A stretch of DNA of 64,000 nt from the IMG/VR virus record IMGVR_UViG_3300032226_000829. One strand, written 5' to 3'. A model generated the notes under the pieces. That model was not told the origin of the DNA. It worked only from the letters and a program-made list of their open reading frames with translations, and made no database searches. Below are positions 10,066 through 60,140 of the stretch, in pieces (position 1 is the stretch's first letter; every line of letters begins with the position of its first letter). Source of the DNA: a virus. Lineage: Duplodnaviria > Caudoviricetes. Both the position numbers and the translations under genes were made by a program.

Positions 10066-11037
10066 ATGGCAAGTTTGAAAAACCTTACGGCAACCAAGAA
10101 CAATAACTTTCCACAAGTGACGGAGACCAATGTGGAATCTGGTCAGATATATAATTTTCAAACCAACAATTTTGATGGACTGCACGCAGGCATTTGTTTT
10201 CATCCCTGTCAATCAGGCACAGCAATAATTGAGATATGGGGCGCAGGTGGCTCGGGAGCCAAAATGTGCTGTTGTGGATTTGGTACTCCTGGTAACCCAG
10301 GCGCATACAGTAGAAAAACAGTCACTCTCACATGCTGCGGATATATCGCAGGATCACCAGGCATAGCCTGCGGCAATGATGCACTGTGTTTCAGAGGCTG
10401 TTCAGATGCCACTGGAGTGACCATTTATGCCAATGGCAGCAACACAGGTTGTATGTGTGCTCAAGGTGGCCGAGGCGGAATTTCTTATTGCAGCACAGGC
10501 ACCAATGCCTACTGTTGTTTCACAGCAGGCGGTTTTTATACCACTTTGGGAGTGAACGGCAACTGCGGCATAGTGTGCAACAAATGTTGTTCAGGTGGAT
10601 GGTGCGCACAGGCATATGGTGGAGACATCAACTGTCCAGGCGGATTCAGTTGTGTGAGTTTCCTAGGAGAGTCAGGATCATCTTGTCCATGCAGCACACA
10701 TTTTCACATGCAAGGACCAGCAGGATACTACTCCAAATGCGGAGTGGTGGTGAGTTTCAATTCAGATGATGGCAATGGTTTTGCCAACTGGTCAGGACAA
10801 GGCAGAGGACAATATGCTCAAGCATTGGCAGGAGCCAGCAGATGGCCTCAGATGGGATCATTTTTTGCTACCTGTTGGGGATTTTCAGGCAACTGTGGAT
10901 GTTACGAGAATGAAGGCTGTATGAATCTATTGCCTCCAGGATTTCCGTCTGCAGGACCACATCCATGTCCAGGTGTGAGAGATCACGCCAGCAAAGGTGG
11001 CAATGGTGCCATCAGAATTAAATTTATAGCAGGATAA
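10066..11037 (+). CDS. Cys/Gly-rich adhesin-like protein, paralog 1
   Basis: EIWGAGGSG glycine-rich-domain motif and C-terminal GGNGAIRIKF; about 30 Cys in 323 aa. Confidence 0.6.
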   Translation: MASLKNLTATKNNNFPQVTETNVESGQIYNFQTNNFDGLHAGICFHPCQSGTAIIEIWGAGGSGAKMCCCGFGTPGNPGAYSRKTVTLTCCGYIAGSPGIACGNDALCFRGCSDATGVTIYANGSNTGCMCAQGGRGGISYCSTGTNAYCCFTAGGFYTTLGVNGNCGIVCNKCCSGGWCAQAYGGDINCPGGFSCVSFLGESGSSCPCSTHFHMQGPAGYYSKCGVVVSFNSDDGNGFANWSGQGRGQYAQALAGASRWPQMGSFFATCWGFSGNCGCYENEGCMNLLPPGFPSAGPHPCPGVRDHASKGGNGAIRIKFIAG

Positions 11038-11042
11038 ACATT

Positions 11043-12041
11043 ATGGCCACACTGAGATCATTATTAGAAACCAAACTGTCGTTCCAGTTGCAGGGTTTAG
11101 AAAGCAACACTGAAGAAGGTAGAATTTGGTCCTACACTCCAGGCACAGCAGTGGGCACCAACTTCTGTTGTGGTGTGTGTTGGATATCACCAGGCACAGG
11201 CACAGCCACCATTGAGATATGGGGTGCAGGTGGTTCTGGAGCCAAAATGTGCTGCTGCGGATTCGGATTGCCTGGCAATCCAGGTGGATATTCTTCAAGA
11301 ACAGTCAACGTCACTGTGGGCTGTTGTATCAGAGGCAACGTGGGATTATCCTGCGGTAACTCAGACGATTTATGTTACAGAGGCAGATCAGAAAGCACAG
11401 GAGTGTGCTGGCAGGGCAATGGCACCAATGGTTGTATGTGTGCAGAAGGTGGTCAAGGTGGCTACAGCTATTGTTCTACCACTCCATCGGCCTATTGCTG
11501 CTTTGGAGCCAACGGATTTTGCAACACCAAAACCGCTGGTGAAAACTGCGGAATAATTTGCAACTACAGAGGCGCAGGTTGCGCTGTGCATGAAGCTCAA
11601 GGATACGGCGGCACCTGCAACATGGCAGCTGGATTCAGTTGTGTGAGTTTCTTTGGATGCTTGCCATCATGTCCATGTGCATTTTGGTATCACACCAGAA
11701 CACCACCCAAGATGTATGCAGACTGTGGAGCATGGATCACCTACACCAATGATGTGGACAATGGAGCCTACAACTGGAGCGGTGGCGCTCAGTATGGTTA
11801 CATACACACATTAGGACTTACTTCTCGCAATCCCACACATGGCGGTAACTATTCAGCCTGTTGGACTGGTCATAGATATTGCGGTTGCTACAACATGAAC
11901 GGTTGCATAGCATTTGTGCCACCAGGTCATGCAGGAGCACCACCACATCCATGTCCAGATGTGAGAGATCATGCCTACCGAGGTGGACATGGTATAATTA
12001 GAATTAAATACGTGGGAACAGGATATTTGGGGTTAAACTAA
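11043..12041 (+). CDS. Cys/Gly-rich adhesin-like protein, paralog 2
   Basis: EIWGAGGSGAKMCCCG ... PCPDVRDH..RGGHGIIRIKY; about 31 Cys in 332 aa. Confidence 0.6.
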   Translation: MATLRSLLETKLSFQLQGLESNTEEGRIWSYTPGTAVGTNFCCGVCWISPGTGTATIEIWGAGGSGAKMCCCGFGLPGNPGGYSSRTVNVTVGCCIRGNVGLSCGNSDDLCYRGRSESTGVCWQGNGTNGCMCAEGGQGGYSYCSTTPSAYCCFGANGFCNTKTAGENCGIICNYRGAGCAVHEAQGYGGTCNMAAGFSCVSFFGCLPSCPCAFWYHTRTPPKMYADCGAWITYTNDVDNGAYNWSGGAQYGYIHTLGLTSRNPTHGGNYSACWTGHRYCGCYNMNGCIAFVPPGHAGAPPHPCPDVRDHAYRGGHGIIRIKYVGTGYLGLN

Positions 12042-13003
12042 TGGCTGGATTAAAAAGTATATTATCATCAAAAGTGTCATACACCGTGACTGAGAACAAC
12101 CTTGAACAGGGTGTGATCTATGCATTCTCACCCGGCACATTCTACACCAATTACTGCAACGGCTTCTGTTGGAAACCACCAGCCACAGGTTGTGCCATTG
12201 TGGAGATATGGGGTGCTGGTGGATCAGGATCGCGTATGTGCTGTTGTGGTGGAGGATTGCCCGGCAATGCAGGTGGATATTCAAGAAAAAGCATAGCAGT
12301 GACCACTGCCAACTTTGTGTGTGGCTGTGTGGGCTTTCCCAGATATGCTCATGATTTATGTTTTTCAGGTTGCGGTGATCCCAGCACAGTGTGTTGGACC
12401 AGCACTGATTCCAATGGTTGCTTGTGTGCCAGAGGTGGCCGAGGTGGCACTAGTTTCTGCAGCACCGGCACCAGCATGTTCTGTTGCTACAGAGCCAACG
12501 GATTTTGTAGTTTTGGACCCATCAACGACAACTGCGGCATCGTGTGCAATCATTGTTCAGGTGGTTGGGAATCACTGGCATACGGTGGTGACATCAACTG
12601 CTGCGGCACCATAGGCTGCACATCATTCTTGGGCTGTTATCCCACATGTCCTTGTTACACACATCATCATGCTCCTCTGCCAGCCTACATGTTTGCAGAA
12701 AAAGGCGCTAGAGTGAGTTTTCAAACATCAGACGGACAAGCCAACACAAGTGGTATGTCAGGCAGTCAGCTGCCTGCTTATCTACAATCACTGGCAGCAC
12801 TCAGCAAACAACCTACCAGAGGCACTTTCAACTCTTATTGTTGGAGATCAGACAGATCCTGCGGATGTTATGAGATGCAAGGATGTTCACCATTTTTACC
12901 CGTAGGCGCAGGTGGTCTACCTCCACAACCTTGTCCAGATGTGAGAGATCATGGAATCAGAGGCGGCTGGGGTGGTATGCGTATCAGATTTATAGCAAGT
13001 TAA
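12041..13003 (+). CDS. Cys/Gly-rich adhesin-like protein, paralog 3
   Basis: EIWGAGGSGSRMCCCG ... PCPDVRDHGIRGGWGGMRIRF; about 31 Cys in 320 aa; TAATG stop/start overlap with paralog 2. Confidence 0.6.
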   Translation: MAGLKSILSSKVSYTVTENNLEQGVIYAFSPGTFYTNYCNGFCWKPPATGCAIVEIWGAGGSGSRMCCCGGGLPGNAGGYSRKSIAVTTANFVCGCVGFPRYAHDLCFSGCGDPSTVCWTSTDSNGCLCARGGRGGTSFCSTGTSMFCCYRANGFCSFGPINDNCGIVCNHCSGGWESLAYGGDINCCGTIGCTSFLGCYPTCPCYTHHHAPLPAYMFAEKGARVSFQTSDGQANTSGMSGSQLPAYLQSLAALSKQPTRGTFNSYCWRSDRSCGCYEMQGCSPFLPVGAGGLPPQPCPDVRDHGIRGGWGGMRIRFIAS

Positions 13004-13048
13004 TATAATATGTTGATAAATACACTAAATAGCACAGAGGAATAAAAT

Positions 13049-13702
13049 ATGATAAACAAAAATTTCACAATACCTTTGGCAGATGAGCCATATCTAGACA
13101 CCACCACACAGAATAAAACATACCCTGCCACCTACACAGGCCCAAGATATTTAAAAGTGTGTGTGGATAAAGAAACCAAAATAGTGGAAAGATATGTGGC
13201 TGGTGCTGACACCATGGATGGCCTAAGTGCAATCATCGCTATTGAAGAAGCTGAAAAAATATATCAAATTTTAAATGCAGAAACACACACATTTGAAGCT
13301 GCTTATCTCACAGGCATGTACACCACCGGACCAGTGCCCAATTATACAGAAACACTGCCAACTCAAGATGATGAAGGAGTAGATGAAACTTTTGAATATG
13401 GTTGGAACGACAACACAGGAATGATTGCACAACAGTATTACAACATAGATTTAAAATTTGTAAACGGAGCATATGTAAGACCTAGATTTAGAACTCATGC
13501 ATTGACCAGAGCAAGTTTTTTAGCCAGTTTGGTTGTGCAGGCCACAGCAATTGAAGCTGCTATCGAAAGCAATGAATCACTGTCTGATGCAGACATTGCC
13601 CAACTAGAAACTTATGTGACCTGGTTGAGAAATGTACCTACCAAATATGCAAATGTCAAGCATTGGAAAATTCCATTCAAAATCACAGTACCAATTTACT
13701 AG
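13049..13702 (+). CDS. Putative tail-fibre assembly chaperone
   Basis: SD GAGG and two TAAATA upstream; C-terminus ETYVTWLRNVPTKY...HWKIPF resembles the W..YRQALRD.P...WP end of phage tail assembly chaperones; directly follows the adhesin-like genes. Confidence 0.4.
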   Translation: MINKNFTIPLADEPYLDTTTQNKTYPATYTGPRYLKVCVDKETKIVERYVAGADTMDGLSAIIAIEEAEKIYQILNAETHTFEAAYLTGMYTTGPVPNYTETLPTQDDEGVDETFEYGWNDNTGMIAQQYYNIDLKFVNGAYVRPRFRTHALTRASFLASLVVQATAIEAAIESNESLSDADIAQLETYVTWLRNVPTKYANVKHWKIPFKITVPIY

Positions 13703-13773: not shown

Positions 13774-14718
13774 ATGAATAGATCCAAAGCATTTTTTTTA
13801 AACGGAGGTATTGGTCGAATTTTGTGTGCTATTCCTGCACTGGAAAAATACGCTGAAGAATCGGGCGATAAAGATTTTTTAGTCATTTGCGAAGGAGCTG
13901 TGGACATACTCAAAGGTCATCCCATACTGGATCAAAAAACCTACGATATTTTTCATAAAAATTTATTTCATTCTAAATTACAATCCAGAGAAATAGTAAG
14001 TTTGGAGCCTTATAGAGTTTGGGAATATTACAATCAAAAATGCAATCTATCTCAGGCTTTTGATATATTGATCAACGCCAAAGGAGTGAGGTCATTGCCC
14101 AAACCCACCATCCATCTCAGCAAGGAAGAAACTGCTCAAGGACAAAAATTGATGGAAGAAATCAAAGCAAAAATTAAAAAAGATAAAGCCATTGTGTTTC
14201 AACCATTTGGCAGAGGCGTAGAGCACATGGACAAAACTCTTTTGGATAAAACTGGACGCAGTTTTGAATACAAAGATGTTAAGAACTTGATACGAAAACT
14301 ACAAAAAGAAAACTTTGCAGTGATACTGATGTCAGAATTTGGCATGGATCTTAAGGATCAAAAATACACAGATGATGTGGCCATGCCCGAAGGATTGAAT
14401 CTAAGAGTGTGGACAGCACTGATCAAACAAGCTGATCATTTCTTAGGCTGTGACAGTGTGGGTCAGCACTTGGCCTACATAGTAGGCACCACTTCCACTG
14501 TGGTATTGGGACCTACCTATCCCGTCAATACCACTTATCCCGATTGTGACTATTTTAACATAATGGATATGGGAGAAATAGATAGGGAGTATGATCCAAT
14601 TAGAATTACCATGGACGAAAGAATTGCTAGAAAAAATGAAATATTGATGTCTATGAACGAAGAGATTGAAGACTATGTGATCAACGGAGTAATGAGAAGA
14701 AATCAAGATGACAAGTAA
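13774..14718 (+). CDS. GT9-like (heptosyltransferase-fold, GT-B) glycosyltransferase, paralog 1
   Basis: N-terminal GGIGRILCAIPAL (compare GT9 G.IGD....P.L) and C-terminal GCDSVGQHLAYIVG...VVLGPT (compare GT9 G.DSG..HLA.A.G...LFGPT). Confidence 0.6.
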   Translation: MNRSKAFFLNGGIGRILCAIPALEKYAEESGDKDFLVICEGAVDILKGHPILDQKTYDIFHKNLFHSKLQSREIVSLEPYRVWEYYNQKCNLSQAFDILINAKGVRSLPKPTIHLSKEETAQGQKLMEEIKAKIKKDKAIVFQPFGRGVEHMDKTLLDKTGRSFEYKDVKNLIRKLQKENFAVILMSEFGMDLKDQKYTDDVAMPEGLNLRVWTALIKQADHFLGCDSVGQHLAYIVGTTSTVVLGPTYPVNTTYPDCDYFNIMDMGEIDREYDPIRITMDERIARKNEILMSMNEEIEDYVINGVMRRNQDDK

Positions 14719-16522
14719 GCCTTCAGGTTATATTGCTGCCATTGCTAGAGGACACAATGCCGGAGTGTGTTTGTTAAAAGATGGCAACGTTGTTTTTTCC
14801 ATAGAAGAAGAAAGATTAAGTAGACAAAAATATGATGGCGGACCTTATGCCAGCATGATGGAAATATTAAAATACACTGACAAAATAGATTATTTGATTG
14901 TGGCTCACACACAAAAACTCAAAGACACAGCAGGCAAAGTGGATTTTACAGGTGATGACGTGTACACTGGACTGGCACGTAAAATGGGATTGATTGATAG
15001 AACAGCTGATCCTCACAACCATCCTCAAGTGATTGATCTCAGTCACATACATCACAAATTACATGCTGCATGTGCTTTTTACAGATCTGGTTGGGAAAGT
15101 GCTGTGTCGGTGATTGTAGATGGTGCTGGAACATTCATTGGCATTAATAATAATATTCAAGGACAGACCACGGTTTGGGAAGTGGAATCAATTATAAATT
15201 GTGCATATCCTTCAAACTTTCATTCATTGTACAAACATTATGCCACTCGTGATGCTATGATTGGTGCAATATTAAAAAATTTTCCTTCGGACATTACTGA
15301 CGAAGCTGGTAAAACTCACGAAGCAATATTCAGTGACAGAGCCGGCATAGTAAAAGTATACGAAGCTGTGACACAATATTGTGGATTCCAAGCAATTGAA
15401 GCAGGCAAAACCATGGGATTATTTCCCTATGGCAAACCCAATGATAAAATTCCGCAATTATTTGAAACTGAAGGAAAATCACCTTTGTCCAATAGAAATT
15501 TAATTGTACCAACCTACCCTAGTGCAGCGTTAGTGAACGCTCTTATTTTTGATTATCTGGAAGATGAAATAGGAAAATCTCATGATGATGTAACATTATT
15601 ACAAAATCGTAGAGATTTGGCTTATGCTTGCCAAACACAAACTCAAGAACAAGTTTTAAAATTAATTCGTAAAGCAGTGTCCATGAGCAACAATAAGAGA
15701 GTGGTGTTGTCAGGAGGATATGGATTAAATTGTGTGGCCAACTATTATTATTTAGAACATTTGAAAGAAGAAGGAATTGAACTGTATGTGGAACCAACTT
15801 CCAACGATGCTGGCACAGCAATGGGTGCAGCATTGATGTTCTATCATCAGATATTTGCTGACAAAACTCCAAAAGTGCATAACACATTATACTTGGGTCC
15901 TATAAGAGAATACACATTGGCAGACATTGAAAAAAGAGCCAGCATCAGTGAAAATAAAAATGTTAAAATAACAGATGCCACACACAAAGATATAGTAAAA
16001 CTTTTAAAATCAAAAAATATAGTGGCCATGTTCCAAGGTAGATCAGAAAACGGTCCTAGAGCATTGGGCAATAGATCCATATTGTTTGACCCAACATTCA
16101 AAGATGGCAAAGATTTTGTAAATCTAGTCAAAAAGAGAGAATACTTCCGTCCATTTGCTGGAACTATATTGCAAGATGATGTGCATGAATGGTTTGATTT
16201 GCGTGGCATGAAAGATTCTCCGTTTATGATGTATGCTGTGAATTGTCAACCAGGTGTTGAAGAAAAAATTCCTGCAATTATTCATGTGGATGGCACTTGT
16301 AGAATACAAACAGTTACTGAAGAACAAAATAAACATTATTATGATTTAATTAAAACATTCAAAGATGAAACAGGTATACCTATATTATTCAATACTTCAT
16401 TTAATTTGGGTGGTGAACCTTTGGTTGAAACTTTGGATGATGCATTTAGAACTCTAGAAAATTCCAAAATTGAATATCTATACTTGCCCGAGCATAAAAA
16501 ATTAATACACATGCCGAATTAA
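14708..16522 (+). CDS. O-carbamoyltransferase, NodU/CmcH/TobZ family
   Basis: Kae1-like HHKLHAACAF, IVDGAG, AGKTMGL, GGYGLNCVAN, NDAG motifs; YrdC-like E.GPRALGNRS, KKREYFRPFA, HVDGTCRIQTV, NTSFNLGGEP. Confidence 0.92.
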   Translation: MTSKPSGYIAAIARGHNAGVCLLKDGNVVFSIEEERLSRQKYDGGPYASMMEILKYTDKIDYLIVAHTQKLKDTAGKVDFTGDDVYTGLARKMGLIDRTADPHNHPQVIDLSHIHHKLHAACAFYRSGWESAVSVIVDGAGTFIGINNNIQGQTTVWEVESIINCAYPSNFHSLYKHYATRDAMIGAILKNFPSDITDEAGKTHEAIFSDRAGIVKVYEAVTQYCGFQAIEAGKTMGLFPYGKPNDKIPQLFETEGKSPLSNRNLIVPTYPSAALVNALIFDYLEDEIGKSHDDVTLLQNRRDLAYACQTQTQEQVLKLIRKAVSMSNNKRVVLSGGYGLNCVANYYYLEHLKEEGIELYVEPTSNDAGTAMGAALMFYHQIFADKTPKVHNTLYLGPIREYTLADIEKRASISENKNVKITDATHKDIVKLLKSKNIVAMFQGRSENGPRALGNRSILFDPTFKDGKDFVNLVKKREYFRPFAGTILQDDVHEWFDLRGMKDSPFMMYAVNCQPGVEEKIPAIIHVDGTCRIQTVTEEQNKHYYDLIKTFKDETGIPILFNTSFNLGGEPLVETLDDAFRTLENSKIEYLYLPEHKKLIHMPN

Positions 16523-16523
16523 T

Positions 16524-17474
16524 ATGAACAAAGCATTTTTTATTAACGGAGGAGCAGGTAGAACATTGTGTTCAGTGCCAGCACTAGAAAATTATGCCAA
16601 CGATAATCCCAATGATGATTTTATTATTGTGTGTGAAGGTGGCACTGATTTCTACAAAGGACATCCTAAATTACATTTTAGAGCGTATGATGTTTGGCAC
16701 AAGAATCTATTCAATGAATACTTAAAAGATAGACAACTGATAACTCCTGAACCATACAGGGTTTGGGAATACTACAATCAAAAATGTAATATTGCACAAG
16801 CATATGACATAGAGATTAATGGCAAAGGACTACGCACATTAGAAAAACCCAAAATTTATCTTTCCAAAGAAGAACTGATCATGGCAAGACAGATGATCAA
16901 AGAAATAAAAGAAACCACTAAAAAAGAAAAAATAGTAGTGTTTCAACCTTTTGGTAGAGTATCTAAAAAAGACAACGATAGTTTTATAGATGTGAGTGGT
17001 AGAAGTTTTGAATTGGAAAACATTATCAATCTAATTAGACAGTTGGGCAAACAATATGCTGTGATGGTGATGTCAGAATTTCCCATAGATTTTAGTAAAC
17101 ATCAGATAAATTTTCCAGTGGCTGTGCCTCAGAATATACATATAAGAATTTGGAGTGCTGTGATAAAAATGTGTGATCATTTCTTAGGCTGTGACAGTTT
17201 GGGCCAACATCTTGCACATGCTTTTGACAAAACAGCCACAGTGGTATTTGGTTCAACATTTCCCAATAATGTTTCTTATCCAGACAATAATAAATTTGAT
17301 ATCATTGACATGAACAAAGACAGTAGAATTTACAGTCCTATACGCATAACCATGGATGAATATGCTGACAGAGCCAATGAAGATGCTATGAAAATGGACA
17401 AAGAAGTGGAAAATAGAATTATGCAATCTGTCAACAGCATGATCAAACACGGCTACAAAAAGAATAAAAAATAA
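16524..17474 (+). CDS. GT9-like glycosyltransferase, paralog 2
   Basis: GGAGRTLCSVPAL; EPYRVWEYYNQKCN shared with paralog 1; GCDSLGQHLAHAF...VVFGST. Confidence 0.6.
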   Translation: MNKAFFINGGAGRTLCSVPALENYANDNPNDDFIIVCEGGTDFYKGHPKLHFRAYDVWHKNLFNEYLKDRQLITPEPYRVWEYYNQKCNIAQAYDIEINGKGLRTLEKPKIYLSKEELIMARQMIKEIKETTKKEKIVVFQPFGRVSKKDNDSFIDVSGRSFELENIINLIRQLGKQYAVMVMSEFPIDFSKHQINFPVAVPQNIHIRIWSAVIKMCDHFLGCDSLGQHLAHAFDKTATVVFGSTFPNNVSYPDNNKFDIIDMNKDSRIYSPIRITMDEYADRANEDAMKMDKEVENRIMQSVNSMIKHGYKKNKK

Positions 17475-17498: not shown

Positions 17499-17915
17499 AT
17501 GTTCAATGTAAACAACTTGTTTGGCAAGGGTGTAAAGAATACTCTACTGTTAAAAAATGGTTTAAATTTTTCAGTGGGAGGTCCTTTTACCAGTGTGCAA
17601 ACAGACACATTAATAGATAGATGGCAATTCACATCTGTATCAGCTGCTGAGTACACCATGATGGTGGACTATGATACCAACAACAAAGAAATTATAAGAT
17701 GTTTGCTGGTGGGCGGACCAAACGCTGCCACAGTGACCATATATGGTCGTGGAAATCTTGGCAATGAATTAATCACCCTTACTGCCACTGTAAACGATTC
17801 ATATGTGGAGTTACGAGCCACTGCTGCACAAGGTGCTGACAGCACTGTGTATTATGGTTCTAAATGCATCTTCCAAGCCACCTATTTCGAAACTCTTAAT
17901 CCTATCACACGTTAA
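17499..17915 (+). CDS. Small virion structural protein
   Basis: TAAATA 5 nt upstream of ATG; ID.W...AEY....EIIRCLLV...IYG...L..TATV..SYVEL resembles myovirus fibre terminal domains. Confidence 0.45.
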   Translation: MFNVNNLFGKGVKNTLLLKNGLNFSVGGPFTSVQTDTLIDRWQFTSVSAAEYTMMVDYDTNNKEIIRCLLVGGPNAATVTIYGRGNLGNELITLTATVNDSYVELRATAAQGADSTVYYGSKCIFQATYFETLNPITR

Positions 17916-17959
17916 AATAGCAGCTGGTTTTAGATAAATACACTAAAAACTAGACATTT

Positions 17960-18670
17960 ATGCCAGTAGTTAATAATCCATTAAAATCGTTGTATGGCTT
18001 TCAAAGTCCATCATTCAGCGTGAATGCTGCAGGCAATCTTGTGGCCAACAACATTACCACCAACAATATCACAGCCAACAGTATATCAGTGATTGATATT
18101 GACTCCACAGGCACCAGCACTCTTACAGATTTATTGGTCACAGGTTCTACAGAATTGCAAAACACTTTGGCAGTGGATGGTGATTCCATTTTTAATTCCA
18201 CAGTATCCATCACAGATTCAACTGCTGCCACTTCACTGGTAGCGGCTGCTTTGATTGTGACAGGAGGAGTGGCCATACAAAGCAATTTGAGAGTCAACAG
18301 CGATATCAACATAGGTCAAAATTTATTAGCACAGAACAATGTGCAAGCCAACAATTCTTTGGTGTCCAACAGTATCACCACTGTGGATGATGGCAGCACT
18401 TTGAGCGATCTCACCATTGAACCTTTGGGTGATGTGATTTTTAGAACTGCCAGTCAAAGTGTGGAAGTGGGCAGAATAGATGCCACAGGATCCAACTTGC
18501 CTGTGCAAAACACCACCATCAACAATACCACCATAGGATTAACTGTGGCCAGCACTGCTGCTTTTGTCAGCGGCACTGTGGTGAATACTCCCACCAATGC
18601 AGCCAATATCACCAGAAAAGACTACGTGGATCGTACTGCTGTGGCTTTTGCTGTGGCTTTGGGAGCATAG
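17960..18670 (+). CDS. Fibre-like structural protein (Thr/Ser/Asn-rich)
   Basis: TAAATA upstream; ends ITRKDYVDRTAVAFAVALGA, a fibre-type terminus. Confidence 0.5.
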   Translation: MPVVNNPLKSLYGFQSPSFSVNAAGNLVANNITTNNITANSISVIDIDSTGTSTLTDLLVTGSTELQNTLAVDGDSIFNSTVSITDSTAATSLVAAALIVTGGVAIQSNLRVNSDINIGQNLLAQNNVQANNSLVSNSITTVDDGSTLSDLTIEPLGDVIFRTASQSVEVGRIDATGSNLPVQNTTINNTTIGLTVASTAAFVSGTVVNTPTNAANITRKDYVDRTAVAFAVALGA

Positions 18671-18704
18671 GTAAATACAATGTCTAAACATAACTCTGTA
18701 AAAA

Positions 18705-21700
18705 ATGGCTAAAAAACAGTTAAAAAATTTTATATTTGAACCAGGTATTGGCAAGGATGATGGTCTATATCCCAATGCTGCCACACTGGTACTGGCCAAC
18801 AAAGCATTTTTACAACAACAGGTTGTGGCATACATCAACTACAACATCGCCAACGGTATTGCACCCTATGTGGGATATACCTACGCTTCACAAAAATGTA
18901 TCAGAGACGTGGGGTATTTCATAGACGCAGTCACACACGATTTAAGATATGGTGGCAATGTTAAATGTCGTCAGGTGGCAGATTATTTTTGGATAGACGG
19001 AGAACCTCAGATCCGAGGTGATGTCACACCAGAGACCACTGGACAGGCCTATCTGCGTGATATTATCAATCAATTCATACTGACCAAAACACCAGTCACT
19101 CCCACCTACGGCAACACCACACCTCAGGTATTCACTGCAGGCATCAGCACAGAGAGTGATGCTGCCACTGCCAACATAGTGTTGTGGAATATTTTCAGCA
19201 CCGTGATCACCAACGGTCCCAGTGCAATGCCAGCCAAGGTACCAGGTGTGTCTTCCATCAGAGTGATTGGACAGATTGATCCCGCCAGCATATTATTGAT
19301 TACTGATGTGGATTCAGGAAATATCTTATACAGTTTTGCTGATCCTGCCAATAGTATTTCTGTGACCTATAAACAAGGACGCAGCAGCGGCGACGGCAAT
19401 TTATTAAGTGATTTGGATTGGCCCACTTGGTGGCAGACCAGTGATTCAATCACCACCATAGACTTGAGTGCTGATACCAGCACACTCACTGTGGATTCTA
19501 ATATACAATTTTTTGTGGAAGAAGCTGCACAAACAATCAGACCTTGGGAATTCGGCACAGATGCCATTGAGCGTATGCGTGTGGCCATGCCTCAGGCCAT
19601 GTTGGATGCTGACTTTGAATATGGATTACAACCAACCAAATGGCAGGCTTTGGGTACTTTGAGAATGTATCCTTCCACATATGAAGTACCTGGCAGCGAT
19701 CTGACTGTGTTGAGTTGTGTTACTGATGCATCAGTGAACACTGGATTTTTTGGTAGTTCATTGATCACTGTGACCACTTCAGGAGTGCATGGATTCACAG
19801 TGGGTCAACCCATTTCTGTGAAAGGATTAAACAGCACTGTGTCAGGATTTGCCAGAGCAGAAGGATCTTTTTTAGTGTACAGTGTGCCTAGTTCTGTGAG
19901 TTTCACTTATTATGCTAGTGCTAGAGTAGGCACCAGCAACGAACAAAGTTTGTTGACTTCATTCATACAGATACGTCAAGCACAATTTTTCACAGGTGCT
20001 TCCATAGGTCAGCCCAGTTTTTCAGTGTTCACCAATGGTACCACACTCAGCATAGTCACTGCATTATTGGCCACCACAGGAGCCACGTCATTTGTTTACA
20101 TCGGATCAGCACCCACTGTGGGTTCACCCATAACAGGTCCTGCAGAAATTCCAGTGGGCACCAGTGTGTCAGGCACAGTGGGCGCTGCTTCTGTGACCAC
20201 CAATGTGTTATTGAACACTCTGGTCACTGACACTCAAATTAGTTTGACCAATCTCGCTGGCATACAAACCAGCATGGCTTTGGACGTGGGCGGCACAGCA
20301 TCCACCATCAACACCATAGTGGGCAGTGCATTATCATTGAGCAATCAATTGGGCGTGGCATACAAAGGTAGAGATGGAGTCAACAATGCTGTGACTGGTA
20401 CTCTCACAGCCCCAGCAGGAGTAGGTGCACAATTCAATGTGACTCGCAGTGCTGGAGTATACACCTTGGTACAAACACCAGCAGCATCACCCACACCATT
20501 CAACTATCAAAAAGGTGACAGATTAAAAATATTAGGTACCAATTTGGGTGGTGCCACACCAGCCAATGACGTTAATATTTTAATCACTGCCGCAGGCACT
20601 GGTGGTGACATAGATTCATTCACATTCACCGGCACTTCCATCTTGGGCGGTGCCACATACCTCAACATAGGACACACCGGTTACACCGGCAGCACAGGCA
20701 GTGGATTTCAGATCAATGTCACCAGAACAGGTGGCACAGGCACATATTCTATCAACTCAGTAGCAGCAGGCACTGGTTATGTTGTGACTGAACAGGTCAC
20801 ATTTGCAGGCACTCTTTTTGGTGGCACATCACCAGCCAATGACATTGTGTTGGAAATAGCTTCTGTGACTGGCACAGGCGATGTATTAACTTTCACACCA
20901 GTGGGCTCACCAGTGGGGTCATCAGGAGATGTCACTTATTCAGGCACAGCAGCTCCCAACGTGTCACACTTGGGCAATGGAGCAGAATTCAATATAACCA
21001 GAAGCAATGGAGCATATTCAGTCACACTGAACAATGCAGGCACATTGTATGAAGAAGGCAACACAGTTGCAGTATCGGGTACCACACTGAATGGTGCTAC
21101 TCCAACCAACGATGCCACCATTGAAATCACAGGAGTCACAGGAGGAGTCATAGACACAATCACCATCAGTGGAGTGGGTTATGCAGGTGATTCCATCACA
21201 GTGTATCCTACAGTGAGCATCAGTGAACCCATCACTGGCAACATCGCTGCTGGCACAGCTCTAAACGTGGGAGCCATTGCCACTGTACAAGTGGATTTTC
21301 AAGCTCCACACGGATTGGTTCCAGGCACCACCATATTGAGTCAGGTCACTTCGCAACCTGCACCAGAATTAGCATCCACAGCTAGAACCATCACAGGCAG
21401 CGGCACATGGTCTGTGGCTGCTCTGGGTGGAACTTTTGTGGCAGTGAGATCCGGTGCCACAGCCACACAGAGATCCACCAACGGACAAACTTGGGCAGCA
21501 GGCGGAGCATTGGCTTCAACAGCTTCATGGATTTCCGTGGCAGCTGGCAAAGTGAGTGGCGTTGATTATTTTGTGGTTATAGCTTCTGGCAGCACTTCTG
21601 CTGCTTGGTCTGTGAACAGTGGACAGAGCTGGACTGCTGCTGCTCTACCCAGCGGCGCCAACTGGAGCAAAGTGGCCTATGGTGACGGTGTATTTGTGGC

Positions 21701-28026: not shown

Positions 28027-29487
28027 CTATAGACTTAGGTTCCAGGTTCCTTTGCGATATTCACCTTCAAAGCTCAATAACCATGCTGTGCCATCCCATT
28101 TGTACTGCACACCTGTGTTTAGATTGGTGATGTAGGTAAATTCAACTGCTGAATCCACAGTGTTAGCATTGGCACTGGCATCAAATAATATGTTCCATTG
28201 AGTGCCATTCCATTCTATGATGTCATTGGATTGAGCCACAAAATCACTACTGTTGGAATTCTTCCATGCATCGGCTCCGTCCACATTACTGTTTGATCCT
28301 ATGTCATTTAAAATTAATAATCGTAATCCAGAAATTTTTGTTGCTGTGGGATTGAATGTGAGTGGATCTATGATGTAATCCACAGTGCCTCTGTTGGTTA
28401 CTCCATTGATAATTGTATTGGTTGGAATAGTATCAGTGTCCCAATTCACTATCAATTGATTTTCATTCAAACTGTTGAGAGCAAACGTTCCTGAAATTGT
28501 GGAATCCATATCAGAACGTTCCAAAAGTATTCTACTGATGCCTGCTTGATAAATTCCTGGATATGCATCCAACACTTTTCTCCAATTGGTTACGCCCACA
28601 ACTCCTTTGTCTACTATTTGAACTATGCTGTTCATTACCACAATATCCCAATCACTGATAGTGGTTGCTATCACAGAATTAGCATCGGTTCTTGCCACTT
28701 TGCTGGTATCCTGAGTGCCATCAGCTGTGGTATTGATATCTGATCTAGCAGTGTCTGTGGGATCATCTGAATATGCTTTGAGTTCAGGCATGCTCATTCC
28801 CAAATCAATATTACCTGTTTGTTCGTTAAAAATACTGGTGATAATTTTTGTAATTACTCCTAATTTTTTTACTTTGGTTGGTGCACTGATATAGATTGGA
28901 GTGGTAAATTGCAGTGTGGCAATGTCTATTTCACTTTCAGTGCCTGTGGGAATTCCTCTGGAACTAAAAGTTATTCCATTAAGATCTAACACAGTTAAAC
29001 TGGTCCAATCAATGTAATTGTCAGTGGTTTGAATTTCTAAACTGGGATTGAATAACATCAATATTTGTTCTAATATTTGTAATTTTTGATCTGTATTGGT
29101 TGACCAAATGTCCACACTCACACCCAAGGTGTAAGGAGTAGGCATTAATCTTTCCACAGTAAAATTGGCTCCTTGAATATTCAAATACTCCTCGTTATTT
29201 TCATCAAATGCTCTTTCTCTCACATGTATTTTACTTACAAATGTAGCATCAGCTGTACGGGTACGATCCATTTCCAATGAAGTCACGTATACTGCCATTC
29301 TAGGAGCACTGGGAATTTTATTTTCACTGTTGTCTCTAATGATATGTGCCACTTGTCTAGTGATATCGCCATACATCACTGGTATGGTCTTCAATTGACC
29401 TTTGCCATCTTTATAAGAAAAATTACTCATTAATCTCACAATCTGAGTAATATATCTGCGTATTTGTCCGTCGTAAAAAAATTCCAT
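28027..29487 (-). CDS. Tail terminator / sheath stabiliser (T4 gp15-like) with C-terminal extension
   Basis: FFYDGQIRRYITQIVRLMSNF, IPVMYG, P.MAVY, PTPY.LGVSVDIW, QILEQIL.LFNP; adjacent to gp14-like gene. Confidence 0.75.
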   Translation of the reverse strand: MEFFYDGQIRRYITQIVRLMSNFSYKDGKGQLKTIPVMYGDITRQVAHIIRDNSENKIPSAPRMAVYVTSLEMDRTRTADATFVSKIHVRERAFDENNEEYLNIQGANFTVERLMPTPYTLGVSVDIWSTNTDQKLQILEQILMLFNPSLEIQTTDNYIDWTSLTVLDLNGITFSSRGIPTGTESEIDIATLQFTTPIYISAPTKVKKLGVITKIITSIFNEQTGNIDLGMSMPELKAYSDDPTDTARSDINTTADGTQDTSKVARTDANSVIATTISDWDIVVMNSIVQIVDKGVVGVTNWRKVLDAYPGIYQAGISRILLERSDMDSTISGTFALNSLNENQLIVNWDTDTIPTNTIINGVTNRGTVDYIIDPLTFNPTATKISGLRLLILNDIGSNSNVDGADAWKNSNSSDFVAQSNDIIEWNGTQWNILFDASANANTVDSAVEFTYITNLNTGVQYKWDGTAWLLSFEGEYRKGTWNLSL

Positions 29488-29489
29488 GT

Positions 29490-47540: not shown

Positions 47541-48689
47541 ATGAAACTACTGATCAACAACAAAGAATTGGCACACTTTCTCAACAGTATCATCAATCAC
47601 TTTCAAGTGGCCAAAGATAAAGTGACATATGAACACAGCGAAAGTTGGACACATATCAGACAGATTAAAACAAGTATTAGACAGCACAGACGCTGGCTGA
47701 GAAAAATGCGCAATTCGGGAGAAGCAGAACAGGTGCTGGAAGCCAACAATGCCAGATGGAGCTGGGGCAAATGGCCTGGCAAATTGGAGAAAATTTTATA
47801 TCGAGAGTTGACTGATTATGTGGGAAAAATATGGCAACTGATGGATCAAAATAAAGAAAAATATTTTCAAGTCATACATAAGAACATGGATCAGGTGTTG
47901 GAGGCATTGGGCACTGAGCGTGTGCTGAGCATGTACAAAAAAAGTAAGATGCAGCATTTTGTTAAGAGCACAGGGCTGACCATACACAAAAATGCTGAGT
48001 TGGTGCGTAGACAGGACTTCACTGATTATCAACAGGATTGTTTAATTAGAAATACCACAGGCAACGAACAATTACTGGTGCAAAAAATTGACAATCGTTA
48101 TCCTATGTGGTTCATAGACAGTGGGTACACCAACTTCTTAGAACCCAATAAAAAATGGCACAGATTGGTGCGCAATCACATACATCATGATCGGATGTTT
48201 GAAGCTCCTGTGGATAGATTATCCAACTTCACCAGTTTTCCCCAACCATGGAGACAGTCAGGAGAAAAAATACTGATCATAGAACCAGGACCATTTGCTG
48301 CCAGCATATTTCATGTGGATCTTAAAACTTGGAAATATGACGTGGAACGTGAACTGAAGAAACACACAGATAAAAAAATTGTGTTTAGAGAAAAAGCTGA
48401 AAAAAAAGTTCGCACCAGTCTTGTGGAAGAACTCCGCAATGAAGATTATTATTGTGTGGTAAATATTAATTCCAATGCTGCCACAGAAGCCATATGGTGT
48501 GGCATACCAGTGATCACCTTGGACAAACACATCACCAATCCCGTGAGCAGCAACCAGCTGTCAGACATAGAAAATTTACAGAGACCACATCTAGCACGTT
48601 GGCTGTGTGCTTTGAGTTACAGTCAATTTACCCGAGAGGAATTATACGATGGCACAGCTATTAACATTGTAAAAAAATATCATGTCTAA
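47541..48689 (+). CDS. KpsS/GT107-like (capsule-synthesis family) glycosyltransferase, paralog 1
   Basis: FIDSGY, VFREK, NINSNAATEAIWCGIPVITL, L.YSQFT.EE. Confidence 0.5.
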   Translation: MKLLINNKELAHFLNSIINHFQVAKDKVTYEHSESWTHIRQIKTSIRQHRRWLRKMRNSGEAEQVLEANNARWSWGKWPGKLEKILYRELTDYVGKIWQLMDQNKEKYFQVIHKNMDQVLEALGTERVLSMYKKSKMQHFVKSTGLTIHKNAELVRRQDFTDYQQDCLIRNTTGNEQLLVQKIDNRYPMWFIDSGYTNFLEPNKKWHRLVRNHIHHDRMFEAPVDRLSNFTSFPQPWRQSGEKILIIEPGPFAASIFHVDLKTWKYDVERELKKHTDKKIVFREKAEKKVRTSLVEELRNEDYYCVVNINSNAATEAIWCGIPVITLDKHITNPVSSNQLSDIENLQRPHLARWLCALSYSQFTREELYDGTAINIVKKYHV

Positions 48690-49605
48690 ACTGACCACAG
48701 TATCATACCTTGACATATTACCTCCACACAATAAAAGTGAAGAAAAATCCAACATATTGAAATTTTTTCATCAAGGAGTAAATGCAGCAGGAGACACAGG
48801 CATGCTGCACAAAGGATTCAATTGCGTTCCTTGTGATGTGGCTTGTATCATGGGGTATGTACACAAAGATGGCAAACATTTGCCTCATTTGGATTTAAGA
48901 CAAAAAATATTAGATTATCAAAAACAGTCTGGCAAAAAAACTCTCATAGCAGACAGCAATTTATTTTTGTACATGGATAAAAATAATCCCCAACACTACT
49001 TGCGATACAGTTTTGACGGAGTATTTCCCACCACAGGATTTTATTTTGATAAAGATGTGGATCCTAACAGATGGATTAAAATCAGCAGGAACATGAACAT
49101 CACACTTAAACCTTATAGAACACAGGGCAATCATATACTAATCTGTTTGCAACGCAATGGTGGATGGAGTATGGCAGGCTTGAGTGTGATCGATTGGTTG
49201 GATGATGTCGTGAGAAAAATACAACAGATTTCCAGTAGACCTATTGTGGTAAGACCGCATCCAGGCGATAAAAAAATTATGCGTATTTTGAAATTGAAAT
49301 ACAAAAATGTTTCACTGAGTAATAAACCAAGTCTATTGGATGATCTCAAAAACGCTTGGGCCACTGTGGTGCACAATAGTTCACCCAGCGTGGCCAGTAT
49401 CATAGAAGGTGTGCCTGCATTTATCACAGACTCTGAACCCAAACACAGTCAAAGTTATTCAGTGGCCAATACTGATTTAAATCAAATAGAAAATCCTGTG
49501 TTACATGAAAGGCAGTTTTGGATTGAAAAACTAGCCATGTGCCATTGGAACTTTACAGAAATGCAATCTGGCGAAGCTTGGAGTTTTTTTAGGAAATATG
49601 TATGA
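48682..49605 (+). CDS. KpsS/GT107-like glycosyltransferase, paralog 2
   Basis: ILICLQ, IVVRPHP, VHNSSPSVASIIEGVPAF, W...E..SG.AW. Confidence 0.55.
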   Translation: MSKLTTVSYLDILPPHNKSEEKSNILKFFHQGVNAAGDTGMLHKGFNCVPCDVACIMGYVHKDGKHLPHLDLRQKILDYQKQSGKKTLIADSNLFLYMDKNNPQHYLRYSFDGVFPTTGFYFDKDVDPNRWIKISRNMNITLKPYRTQGNHILICLQRNGGWSMAGLSVIDWLDDVVRKIQQISSRPIVVRPHPGDKKIMRILKLKYKNVSLSNKPSLLDDLKNAWATVVHNSSPSVASIIEGVPAFITDSEPKHSQSYSVANTDLNQIENPVLHERQFWIEKLAMCHWNFTEMQSGEAWSFFRKYV

Positions 49606-51883: not shown

Positions 51884-52567
51884 ATGATAAAAAAATTTAA
51901 ACTACCAACAAATAAAATAATTAATCCAGAACACGACTATTTTACAGGCAAAGCTAGTACTCGATGGAAAAATAAAGGTAGACTTGTAGCAATAGAAGCA
52001 TGTAATCAAAAATATTCAGTGATTGATATCGGAGCACACGTGGGAATCACTACCACACACTGGTTAGAAAATGAATTCCAACATGTGTATGCTTTTGAAA
52101 TTAATCCTTCACATTTTGATTGTTTAGTTGAAAATACTATTGATTATAAATCTAAAATAACTTATTTTAATTATGGTTGTGGTAATGAAAATAAAAAAGT
52201 ATTTGCAGCATACGGAAGTCATAAGAATTCAGGAAGTTTTCAAATAATTGATGATTCAAACATAAAAAATATTTCTAAAGATTGTATTTTTCAAGTTGAA
52301 ATAAAGCAATTAGATCAACATAAATTTGACAAAGTATCATTGATAAAAATTGACGTGGAAGGTTGGGAATTAGAAGTATTGCAAGGGGCAATTAATACTA
52401 TTAAAGAACATCGCCCAGTGTTAATGATCGAGTATGGACATGGGGTAGAACGTAAATCATTGCATAGGTACGATGATAAAATTTTTCAAACTATTATTAA
52501 TGATTTAAAATACAAAGAATGTGATACAATGCAAGGAGACTCTATATTCCTTCCAATAGTTCCTTAA
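51884..52567 (+). CDS. FkbM-family SAM methyltransferase
   Basis: VIDIGAHVG, AFE, LIKIDVEGWELEVLQGA, PVLMIE. Confidence 0.88.
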   Translation: MIKKFKLPTNKIINPEHDYFTGKASTRWKNKGRLVAIEACNQKYSVIDIGAHVGITTTHWLENEFQHVYAFEINPSHFDCLVENTIDYKSKITYFNYGCGNENKKVFAAYGSHKNSGSFQIIDDSNIKNISKDCIFQVEIKQLDQHKFDKVSLIKIDVEGWELEVLQGAINTIKEHRPVLMIEYGHGVERKSLHRYDDKIFQTIINDLKYKECDTMQGDSIFLPIVP

Positions 52568-53130
52568 ATAAATTTAAAAATTAATTCAGATCCTGTCCAA
52601 TCACTAAACTTATCCTTAAACCATTCAGGATTACGAACTTCTTTAAAGTAAGTGGGGTCAAGTAACTTAGTTTTCTTTGGTTTGACTTTTCCGTAACTAG
52701 AATAACATTCTCCGATAAAACAAAACTTTGTAGCATGGTTCATTAATATATTTTTCAATACATCGATGTCCTGATCGGGTATAAAACCAATAGCTTGTAT
52801 CATTATTACAGCGTCAAATTTTTGATGTTCATTGGGCGGAGTTTTAAATTTTTCCCAGCAAGGATCAAATTTATAAACCGAATCAATATTGAGGTATTCA
52901 TTAAAAGTTTGAAATACTCCAGGAGAATATTCTAATTTTTCTATGTATTGCTCACCTTTGCCACACCCATAATCTAATAAAGATTTTACATTGTGTTTTT
53001 CAACTAATGTTTTAATATCGTTAACATAAGCCGTTTGACTAAACCCGCTCCAAGTCTTGTTGCTTTTGTGAAATTGAGTTGACTTACCAATTAGATCGTA
53101 GTAGTGCTGGCTAAAATTATTATGGTGCAT
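52564..53130 (-). CDS. Class I SAM methyltransferase
   Basis: SLLDYGCGKG, FDP, FDAVI; AT-rich. Confidence 0.75.
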   Translation of the reverse strand: MHHNNFSQHYYDLIGKSTQFHKSNKTWSGFSQTAYVNDIKTLVEKHNVKSLLDYGCGKGEQYIEKLEYSPGVFQTFNEYLNIDSVYKFDPCWEKFKTPPNEHQKFDAVIMIQAIGFIPDQDIDVLKNILMNHATKFCFIGECYSSYGKVKPKKTKLLDPTYFKEVRNPEWFKDKFSDWTGSELIFKFI

Positions 53131-56996: not shown

Positions 56997-57001
56997 AACA
57001 A

Positions 57002-57061: not shown

Positions 57062-57073
57062 ATTTTAATTTAT

Positions 57074-58209: not shown

Positions 58210-58212
58210 AAA

Positions 58213-59246: not shown

Positions 59247-59274
59247 GATGCATTCGCTCTGGTTGATTTGGTAT

Positions 59275-59292
59275 TAAATACTCACATATTTA
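59275..59292. promoter_or_regulatory. Interleaved divergent late-type promoters
   Basis: TAAATA-CTCACA-TATTTA. Confidence 0.55.
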
Positions 59293-59297
59293 TCCAT

Positions 59298-60140
59298 ATG
59301 AAATTTGGTCTATTCAAAAACAACGGAGCACTCAACAGTGCAGACATCTTCTACTATGTGGCGGACGGCTTGCAGCAGTTGGGTCACACTGTAACATATA
59401 ACACTGTGGAAGACATAGATGTGCCTGTGATATGGTCCATGTTGTGGCATGGTAGAATGCAAGGCAATCACGCCATCTATCAATCATACAGAAGTCGTGG
59501 TAAGAATGTGTTGGTTTTGGAAGTGGGTGGCATACAGAGAAATGTCACTTGGAAAGTGGCGTTGAATGGCATCAATCGTTCTGCTGATTTTGGCATGGGT
59601 GACATGGATTCTGACAGACCCCATAGATTAAAATTAAAATTAAAACCTTGGCGCACTGATGGTGAACACATTTTAATTTGTGCTCAACACGACAAGAGCG
59701 AGCAGTGGCGAGACATGCCCACTCTGGACAGATGGGTTCACAACACTGTGCTCAAAATTAGAGAACATTCCCAAAGACCTATTGTGATCAGACCACACCC
59801 ACGTTGCCCTATCAAAGATACATTTAAAATGTTTGGCAATGTCACTGTTCAAAATCCTGTGCAGATAGATGGAACTTATGATGATTTTAATTTGGATTTT
59901 CGCAACTGTTGGGCAGTGGTGAGTTGGAGCAGCAATCCCGGACCACAAGCAGTGATTGCAGGCGTGCCTGTGTTTGTGGGTCCTGACAGTTTGGCACATG
60001 ATGTGGCCAATACAGATTTGGCAAACATTGAAACACCACACATGCCCCATCGTGAAAATTGGTTGGTGAATTACGCTCACACTGAGTGGACCGTGGATGA
60101 AATCAGAACCGGAATTCCTTTTAAACGCTTGACTTTCTAA
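59298..60140 (+). CDS. KpsS/GT107-like glycosyltransferase, paralog 3
   Basis: Probable start ATG 59298; VLEVG, ILICAQ, IVIRPHP, VSWSSNPGPQAVIAGVPVF, W...E...G. Confidence 0.55.
   Translation: MKFGLFKNNGALNSADIFYYVADGLQQLGHTVTYNTVEDIDVPVIWSMLWHGRMQGNHAIYQSYRSRGKNVLVLEVGGIQRNVTWKVALNGINRSADFGMGDMDSDRPHRLKLKLKPWRTDGEHILICAQHDKSEQWRDMPTLDRWVHNTVLKIREHSQRPIVIRPHPRCPIKDTFKMFGNVTVQNPVQIDGTYDDFNLDFRNCWAVVSWSSNPGPQAVIAGVPVFVGPDSLAHDVANTDLANIETPHMPHRENWLVNYAHTEWTVDEIRTGIPFKRLTF

Follow-up and report, generated by a model that had tools for sequence, protein, structure and literature searches.

Viral particles that carry sugars attached by virus-encoded enzymes are already known among the mycobacteriophages and the giant viruses. 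The chlorovirus PBCV-1 encodes a Gmd, several cytoplasmic glycosyltransferases (GTs) and sugar methyltransferases, with which a virion protein receives a methylated deoxyhexose glycan, the lipopolysaccharide (LPS) core of Pseudomonas carries 7-O-carbamoyl-heptose, and the structure of the bacterial enzyme TibC is a dodecamer with a Cys-coordinated iron site. In mycobacteriophages, glycosyltransferases encoded beside structural genes are reported to modify virion proteins (Freeman et al. 2023, PMC10527164), and 'LPS gene' clusters of cyanomyoviruses have been in print since 2005 (Sullivan et al. 2005, PMC1079782). Genes of this kind are common in ocean and lake phages and are routinely counted as host-envelope 'auxiliary metabolic genes' (AMGs). 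We have analysed a 64,000-nucleotide stretch of DNA (the window) from a tailed phage, IMG/VR record IMGVR_UViG_3300032226_000829, in which positions 10066-60140 had been proposed, from the letters alone, to encode a single undescribed system that builds an LPS/capsule-like glycan coat for the virion. The gene content proved to be that of the published cyanophage clusters, and the single integrated system dissolved into two sugar gene sets that are inherited separately, Set A (3-28013), which is linked to fibre genes, and Set B (47541-60140). The best reading of these genes is decoration of the virion with modified sugars by the phage's own enzymes, to which we assign a probability of about 0.45, somewhat short of an even chance.

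Results

Set A is conserved as one fibre cassette

The gene order of Set A (long fibre genes, 106- and 110-aa (amino acid) proteins, Gly/Cys-rich triplet, TYTGP protein, GT9-like and carbamoyltransferase genes, small structural proteins with a giant protein, then cupin, epimerase and HldE; Table 1) recurs in three settings, namely 73%-identity relatives (L085 and L086), a different, 264-kb lineage (L083 and L084) and the cyanomyoviruses S-CAM1 and S-SSM7. The Gly/Cys-rich triplet is found in all module versions compared, the 'TYTGP' motif is kept across them, homologues of the cupin, the epimerase and HldE are present in the cyanophage module, and the gene order of 17499..25145 is repeated in L083-L086 and in a further group of contigs (L092-L098). 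The two long fibre genes (3..9290) are homologous to genes annotated 'tail fiber protein' in S-CAM1 and S-SSM7, and residues 1191-1394 of the giant virion protein share 57% identity with a virion structural protein of S-CAM1. Fibre genes of this phage resemble cyanophage fibre genes. Sugar genes had been predicted to lie next to very Ser/Thr-rich fibres of over 2000 aa. Proximity holds for Set A but not for Set B, which lies between uvsY and uvsW, and open reading frames (ORFs) of 2006 and 2146 aa are indeed present, with Ser plus Thr contents of 20% and 24% that are raised over those of the enzymes (8-13%) but not extreme.

Linkage within the cassette is strict. Among several hundred cyanophage records, the GT9-like gene, an orthologous carbamoyltransferase (at least 44% identity), HldE and the gene for the 106-aa protein are common to the same ∼20-24 records, and among cultured phages nearly all that encode the 106-aa protein also carry a GT9-like gene. 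The records are those of P-SSM2, P-SSM5, S-CAM1, S-CAM3, S-SSM7, S-SSM6a, Sf-FS3 and marine single-cell viruses. In 185,579 prokaryote species genomes (one genome per species) the GT9-like family occurs at just 10 loci; at all 10 it adjoins the orthologous carbamoyltransferase, and the same fibre-cassette genes surround the pair where the flank is long enough. Thus, the family is effectively restricted to the phage fibre cassette. Metagenomes contain 3402 homologues at E 1e-5 or better. The ten contigs concerned (L092-L101) had been binned into metagenome-assembled genomes (MAGs) of Methanobacteriota, Neomarinimicrobiota (contigs of 335 kb and 153 kb), Chitinophagales, Polynucleobacter and others, and because contigs bearing the cassette sit in such unrelated MAGs they are most likely mis-binned phage DNA.

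Contigs from four lake RNA libraries cover the Gly/Cys-rich genes, the gene at 13049, and GT9-like, carbamoyltransferase, fibre, cupin and epimerase genes, a result which records presence in RNA libraries and carries no level, strand or timing.

The predicted interval of sugar genes began with 10066-13003. These three genes encode mutually paralogous proteins with 16-18% Gly and many Cys, and the Gly/Cys-rich translations, the paralogy and their placement by the Atlas in the viral Gly_rich_2 family rule them out as glycosyltransferases; they are structural or adhesin-like proteins. A tblastn search of the phage collection with one of these paralogs gave no match, probably owing to low-complexity filtering. 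Around residues 900-1200 of the giant virion protein (18705-25145) there is a run of BNR/Asp-box-like repeats (S-x-D/N-x-G-x-[ST]-W), suggesting a beta-propeller and possibly a glycan-binding domain.

GT9-derived transferases, a carbamoyltransferase and heptose supply

The two GT9-like paralogs, a and b, share 51% identity. Their assignment is upheld by fold, although Pfam matches are sub-threshold or absent: PF01075 scores 17.5 bits for a, against a cut-off of 22, and does not match b, and a profile of 23 family members found no GT9 chain in the PDB by sequence. With an AlphaFold2 (AF2) model of b (pLDDT 84) as the Foldseek query, the top PDB matches are all GT9 enzymes (3tov, E 5e-12 and TM 0.68; WaaC, 9e-9; WaaF, 1e-8; TibC, E 4e-7 and TM about 0.5), and the matching AlphaFold DB clusters are likewise GT9 (E 1e-12). 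The modelled structure is of GT-B fold and closest to GT9 structures. The donor-side motif D-S-x-G-x-H (Asp224, Ser225, Gly227, His229), counterpart of the C-terminal donor-binding motif D-[ST]-G-x-x-H of WaaC and WaaF, is invariant in the family, and a partial match to the NCBIfam heptosyltransferase III model spans this stretch. At the N-terminus the motif G-G-A/I-G-R includes Gly12-Arg13, invariant in 23/23 members, which hhalign places on Gly12-Asp13 of WaaC in an alignment of low overall probability that is nonetheless ungapped from the N-terminus. Because Arg13 replaces Asp13, the catalytic base of WaaC, the phage enzymes are GT9-derived but not canonical. Their only invariant Cys residues are Cys37 and Cys223.

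The GT9-like genes are translationally coupled to the carbamoyltransferase gene that lies between them. This enzyme is as predicted, with both Carbam_trans domains above the gathering score (199.6 and 86.7 bits) and 65% identity to the S-SSM7 orthologue. HldE, Gmd, the NUDIX protein and both cupins are also confirmed by their family or domain matches (Table 1). HldE scores 353 bits with NF008454, below the equivalog cut-off of 521, but it matches both domain models, and ribokinase, the next-best family, reaches 65 bits. The predicted HldD is represented by an HldD-like epimerase, which is short, has a gap after its Rossmann start and scores below the family cut-off. Relatives carry an HAD phosphatase. 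The genes annotated 'phosphoheptose isomerase' in S-CAM1 (L081:12910-13233) and S-SSM7 (L082:17705-18040) encode proteins of 107-111 aa that start with an HAD-type D-x-D-G-T motif, and for this reason they are probably mis-annotated, the product being a small phosphatase in the role of GmhB rather than the SIS-fold GmhA. The conserved cupin of Set A may supply the isomerase or an epimerase step. For the GT9-like enzymes, co-occurrence with HldE and the epimerase suggests an ADP-heptose donor.

The same enzyme families would also fit a soluble glycoconjugate or small molecule, or manipulation of the nucleotide-sugar pool (ADP-heptose, GDP-mannose) as a metabolic or anti-defence function. Nod factors and antibiotics are among the products tailored by NodU-type carbamoyltransferases, FkbM methyltransferases and Gmd; versions of the module in cyanophages add a halogenase and 2-oxoglutarate (2OG) oxygenases, the NUDIX gene adjoins HldE, and the Arg13 substitution hints at a non-canonical acceptor. 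However, the window holds no genes for scaffold synthesis (nonribosomal peptide, polyketide or lipid), and some ten transferases and the strict fibre linkage better suit a macromolecular acceptor. We regard such a product as distinctly unlikely.

No route to the cell surface is encoded in the window

None of the sugar enzymes has a membrane segment, and no initiating transferase, Wzx flippase, Wzy polymerase, WaaL ligase or exporter is present in the window; therefore, any product would be made on a cytoplasmic acceptor. Export and polymerase genes are missing, as is a Kdo supply (kdsB, for CMP-Kdo, is absent from the window). For this reason the expression 'LPS/capsule-like coat' overstates the evidence; both it and the 'Kdo-like' sugars of the original prediction derive from a weak resemblance of fold.

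These absences bear on the standard 'LPS gene / AMG' reading of cyanophage genomes, in which the enzymes alter the LPS, or some other glycan, on the surface of the infected cell and the phage gains superinfection exclusion, release of progeny without trapping on debris, or avoidance of grazers. This was proposed for 24 LPS genes of P-SSM2 (Sullivan et al. 2005, PMC1079782) and repeated in later papers. In its favour, LPS core and O-antigen pathways use the same enzyme families, and receptor-modifying genes can travel with receptor-binding genes. However, in addition to the missing initiation, polymerisation and export functions, the operons are headed by a late-type motif and not by early promoters, no genuine cellular genome among the 185,579 searched contains the GT9-like family, and members of the family lack the catalytic Asp of LPS heptosyltransferases. 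Moreover, the LPS of marine Synechococcus WH8102 contains neither heptose nor Kdo (PMC4515613), and the Set A module is carried by Sf-FS3, a phage that infects this strain and would find no such acceptor there. Remodelling of the host envelope is in our judgement unlikely, and decoration of the virion is preferred.

TAAATA heads structural and sugar operons

A late-type TAAATA motif had been noted before the sugar genes, and this stands. The hexamer occurs 46 times on both strands, hexamers of the same composition having 37-174 copies; the 2165 non-coding bases contain 19 copies, and 21 copies in sense orientation are followed by a start codon within 70 nt. TAAATA stands before the fibre, sheath, tube and gp15-operon genes and before the first genes of the sugar operons, 13049, 47541, 53252, 58544(-) and 29490(-). 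In contrast, sigma-70-like sites and no TAAATA are found before the deoxynucleoside monophosphate (dNMP) kinase gene, gp32, uvsX and the 60164-uvsW unit; the best such site in 20 kb is at 60129-60157, after the last gene of Set B. In one relative (L087), TAAATA heads island operons of different gene content. TAAATA is a real promoter-like motif, strongly enriched ahead of start codons. In T4-type late promoters a gp55-type sigma factor recognises a TATAAATA-like box ahead of late genes, and by analogy with the T4 TATAAATA box late timing of the units headed by the TAAATA core can reasonably be inferred.

Two of the sigma-70-type promoters are near consensus, TTGACA-17-TACAAT before the dNMP kinase gene (31470-31507) and TTGACT-17-TATAAT before the 60164-uvsW unit (60129-60157), and from these sequences the two units would be early-type islands among late operons. 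At five places (17488-17498, 30648-30658, 36465-36475, 39604-39614 and 41883-41893) the TAAATA box ends just 6 nt before the start codon, implying leaderless or nearly leaderless late mRNAs.

Set B is a hypervariable island

Set B fills the gap between uvsY and uvsW, with about eight glycosyltransferase-like genes among its contents. Where terminase identity is 75-79%, relatives have other sugar genes in this gap, namely methyltransferases (FkbM and others), GT8-like and GT-B-like genes, sulfotransferases, a hexapeptide acyltransferase and a GFO oxidoreductase, and in some relatives the genes of the gap have no likeness to those of the window. Tailoring genes thus vary even among close relatives, where sulfotransferases, an acyltransferase or an oxidoreductase appear instead. 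In the Pelagibacter phage Mosig the GT-A-like/GT-B-like pair is found again, with methyltransferases and a sulfotransferase beside RuvC and ribonucleotide reductase (RNR), with no late box. Set B is thus physically unlinked to fibres and inherited independently of Set A. Its Gmd, cupin and FkbM methyltransferases suggest methylated 6-deoxyhexose glycans.

The transferases of Set B are less clearly assigned than had been predicted. The three KpsS/GT107-like proteins (47541, 48682 and 59268) do have a GT-B-type Rossmann domain in the C-terminal half, but resemblance to KpsC is no closer than to GT1: an AF2 model (pLDDT 74) gave KpsC and WbbB in Foldseek at E 0.03-0.2, VIA-align gave KpsC at Z 8.1, tied with C-terminal domains of GT1, the Atlas lead was 0.87, and Pfam Capsule_synth matched neither the window protein nor 20 homologues. 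Searches of the PDB by phmmer with the single sequences 16524, 47541, 48682 and 60164 gave no useful match, nor did those with three family profiles (A1, A2 and A3) give a significant one. All three candidate GT-A proteins are weak, the DxD paralogs at 49602 and 54912 having weak GT2 matches in 6/21 family members and 56325(-) an Atlas lead. The GT17-like match is significant but partial and the GT8-like match is weak. Six of the seven predicted methyltransferases were recovered, three of the FkbM type and three other S-adenosylmethionine (SAM)-dependent enzymes, while a seventh was not identified.

The location of Set B between recombination genes, and of the Mosig cassette beside RuvC and RNR, would be compatible with hypermodification of DNA, in which some or all of the transferases glycosylate phage bases late, before packaging, as protection against restriction. 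Phage clusters that place mono- or di-heptose and Kdo on 5-hydroxymethylcytosine, some of them near structural genes, are described (Pyle et al., 10.1101/2023.12.21.572611), and a T4 gp1-type dNMP kinase is encoded in the window. Nevertheless, the scanned window ORFs include no cytosine methyltransferase, TET-type dioxygenase or hydroxymethylase (dCMP hydroxymethylase included), the GT9-like fold matches GT9 enzymes and not the T4 beta-glucosyltransferase, and a DNA function would not be expected to keep Set A strictly tied to a single fibre cassette from lineage to lineage. DNA as the target is accordingly a long shot, and the virion remains the favoured one.

Table 1. Features of the two sugar gene sets and of the genes interspersed with them (window coordinates).
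Feature	Position	Strand	Evidence
Set A, fibre cassette and adjoining gp15 genes
Long fibre gene 1	3-3233, 5' end open	+	Paralog of 3270-9290
Long fibre gene 2, 2006 aa, four CBM_5_12 modules	3270-9290	+	Pfam CBM_5_12 E 3e-32; TAAATA 26 nt before 3270
Two small fibre-cassette proteins, 106 and 110 aa	9319..10016	+	38-48% identity to same-position S-CAM1 proteins
Three Gly/Cys-rich paralogs, 323/332/320 aa	10066..13003	+	Mutual identity 45-49%
217-aa protein with 'TYTGP' motif, first gene of enzyme operon	13049..13702	+	phrog_9740; TAAATA at 13017 and 13026
GT9-like transferase a	13774..14718	+	phrog_8954 E 5e-136; Pfam GT9 E 0.0028, below cut-off
NodU/CmcH-type O-carbamoyltransferase	14708..16522	+	Carbam_trans_C E 4e-59; Carbam_trans_N E 3e-24
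GT9-like transferase b	16524..17474	+	AF2 model, Foldseek
Small structural proteins, 138 and 236 aa, then giant virion protein, 2146 aa	17499..25145	+	Each with own TAAATA box
Cupin	25114-25518	-	Weak mannose-6-phosphate-isomerase match
HldD-like epimerase, 275 aa	25505-26332	-	TIGR02197 236 bits, cut-off 274.6
HldE, bifunctional	26329-27579	-	NF008454 E 2e-105
NUDIX	27579-28013	-	Domain match; adjoins HldE
gp15-like tail sheath stabiliser and virion structural protein	28027..30647	-	PF16724 E 6e-26; phrog_11591
Set B
GT-B-like paralogs, 382 and 307 aa, head of Set B	47541..49605	+	Paralogy; TAAATA at 47517
GT-A-like DxD protein	49602-50327	+	DxD motif; weak GT2 matches in family
FkbM methyltransferase	50329-51018	+	Domain match
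GT17-like	51011-51868	+	E 2e-11, partial match
Second FkbM methyltransferase	51884-52567	+	Domain match
SAM methyltransferase-like, weak	52564..53130	-	Methyltransf_23 E 1.4e-4, below cut-off
GT8-like, weak	53252-53929	+	E 1e-3; TAAATA at 53228
Gmd (GDP-mannose 4,6-dehydratase)	53938-54912	+	E 8e-122
GT-A-like DxD protein	54912-55727	+	DxD motif; weak GT2 matches in family
Methyltransferase	55755-56321	-	Domain match
GT-A/GT8-like, weak	56325-56996	-	Atlas lead only, to nucleotide-diphospho-sugar transferases
FkbM methyltransferase	57074-57712	-	Domain match
Methyltransferase	57709-58209	-	Domain match
Cupin	58213-58557	-	Domain match
227-aa protein, no assigned family	58544-59227	-	TAAATA box 59287-59292
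Third GT-B-like paralog, last Set B gene	59268-60140	+	35% identity to 48682-49605

The phage and neighbouring genes

By gene content, a T4-superfamily myophage is the source of the window, which spans its late and recombination regions. It encodes a gp15-like tail sheath stabiliser, tail sheath, tail tube and large terminase as well as a gp32-like protein, UvsX, UvsY, a UvsW-like helicase and the T4 gp1-type dNMP kinase. The gp15 pair heads a minus-strand run behind the TAAATA box at 30653-30658, and the heptose supply genes lie downstream in the same run. The source is a freshwater jumbo phage of this superfamily, with a large terminase that shares 55% identity with its counterpart in the jumbo Pseudomonas phage PA5oct and 73-100% with those of many uncultured IMG/VR contigs; a megablast search with 48 kb of the window against the phage collection returned zero matches and thus no near-identical cultured phage. 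Its DNA is found in lake metagenomes of at least 11 studies. As 79-90% of sampled words from window positions 12900-18800 are present in these metagenomes, and partly in lake metatranscriptomes, the lineage is widespread in fresh water.

Two further genes are kept in relatives. Between the tail tube genes and the terminase lies a gene for a TnsA-like endonuclease (38079-38522; PF08722, E 3e-20), also seen in L088, which may be a domesticated or homing-type nuclease. Directly after the terminase, an 896-aa ORF (41894-44584) has its own TAAATA box and no family match; its counterparts in relatives are 858-867 aa long, and residues 338-428 are weakly similar to UvsX.

Discussion

From the observed gene identities, folds, synteny, co-occurrence and motif enrichment we infer the donor sugar of the GT9-like enzymes, a protein acceptor, late timing and function. 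In the scheme that we favour, the phage would make ADP-heptose in the cytoplasm late in infection, by means of HldE, the HldD-like epimerase and the cupin, soluble GT9-derived enzymes would transfer heptose to a protein of the Set A cassette before assembly, and the carbamoyltransferase would O-carbamoylate the transferred sugar. Set B would yield a strain-specific, methylated oligosaccharide of 6-deoxyhexose type, whose acceptor is possibly also a virion protein. A fibre-cassette protein is the most likely acceptor for Set A because of the strict fibre linkage, the phage-only distribution and the late-type motif, and because the module is carried by phages of the heptose- and Kdo-free WH8102, its genes are translationally coupled and TibC/AAH provide a precedent. 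The preference expressed in the original prediction for the virion over DNA or the host surface is thus retained, on the strength of the late-type motif, of soluble enzymes without export genes and of linkage to the fibre cassette, for a target that is itself deduced.

Several points weigh against virion decoration. The acceptor is a predicted one, and the fibres are not enriched in a Ser/Thr sequon, in DS (7 occurrences versus 7.3 expected, and 8 versus 8.1) or in any other Ser/Thr dipeptide. Arg in place of the catalytic Asp13 leaves the chemistry and even the donor of the GT9-like enzymes uncertain, and GmhA and GmhB were not found, the window scan revealing no SIS or HAD protein. Late timing is deduced from the motif by itself, by analogy, and the contigs from RNA libraries could be DNA carry-over. 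Set B lies 22 kb from the nearest fibre gene, and the related cassette of Mosig is situated among replication genes and has no late box. Finally, phage clusters which place heptose or Kdo on DNA are known, some of them near structural genes (10.1101/2023.12.21.572611).

A more specific version of virion decoration is that the phage-only GT9 derivative with Arg13 and the carbamoyltransferase put carbamoyl-heptose on Cys/Gly-rich receptor-binding proteins of the fibres, that Set B adds strain-specific methylated deoxyhexose glycans, and that the resulting glycan 'serotypes' of the particle tune adsorption or hide it from defences or grazers. We hold this as a doubtful, though still credible, proposal.

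In the literature searched, no paper linking cyanophage, carbamoyltransferase and heptose was found, nor any report of a heptosylated phage fibre or paper that tests or states the idea of fibre heptosylation. New with respect to the papers searched are the occurrence of the module in a jumbo phage of fresh water related to PA5oct, its restriction to phages, the replacement of Asp by Arg and a second, hypervariable glycan island under a late motif. If virion decoration is correct, a widespread class of 'AMG' needs to be reclassified, virion glycosylation extends from mycobacteriophages and giant viruses to abundant aquatic myophages, and the GT9-like enzymes define a new branch of GT9 that modifies proteins and has altered catalytic residues. 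The question is directly testable, as the cultured cyanophages S-CAM1, S-SSM7, P-SSM2 and Sf-FS3 carry the same module.

Comparison with known systems

The PBCV-1 machinery resembles the content of Set B but belongs to a eukaryotic virus, its enzymes are unrelated, its glycans are N-linked and its acceptor is known, being the major capsid protein. The pairing of heptose with carbamoyl in Set A mirrors the 7-O-carbamoyl-heptose of the Pseudomonas core. WaaC and WaaF, of CAZy family GT9, are the best structural matches to the phage enzymes and share their donor-side motif; unlike them, the phage family falls below the Pfam GT9 threshold, has Arg13 for Asp13, is found in phages only and occurs in some carriers whose hosts lack a Kdo-lipid A acceptor. 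TibC and AAH are encoded beside their substrates, the adhesins TibA and AIDA-I; with ADP-heptose as donor, these soluble enzymes of GT9 fold O-heptosylate the adhesin while it is in the cytoplasm. The fold of TibC matches that of the GT9-like enzymes, but sequence identity is ∼10%, the phage family has Arg for the catalytic Asp, the four-Cys iron site of TibC/AAH is not conserved (two invariant Cys) and no acceptor repeat was recognised.

Among phage systems, the DNA glycan clusters of Pyle et al. also combine sugar activation with GT-A and GT-B enzymes, involve heptose and Kdo and in some cases lie near structural genes; they are defined, however, by an adjacent 5-methylcytosine methyltransferase, TET-type dioxygenase and T4 beta-GT-like enzymes, none of which is present in the window. 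The mycobacteriophage system is reported to employ one or two GT-A-type enzymes acting on the C-termini of capsid and tail tube proteins, with no sugar-nucleotide pathway, heptose, carbamoylation or methylation, whereas virion glycosylation by the window phage is predicted from its genes. The cyanomyovirus clusters (P-SSM2, S-SSM7, S-CAM1) are homologous to Set A and syntenic with it, HldE and the flanking fibre genes also matching, with the GT9-like proteins at 47-54% identity, the carbamoyltransferase at 47-65%, the cupin at 39% and the epimerase at 41%; their published reading, a change of the host surface, is itself a proposal. Unlike these clusters, that of the window phage, a freshwater PA5oct-related jumbo, contains two GT9-like genes and a fused HldE but lacks an HAD phosphatase.

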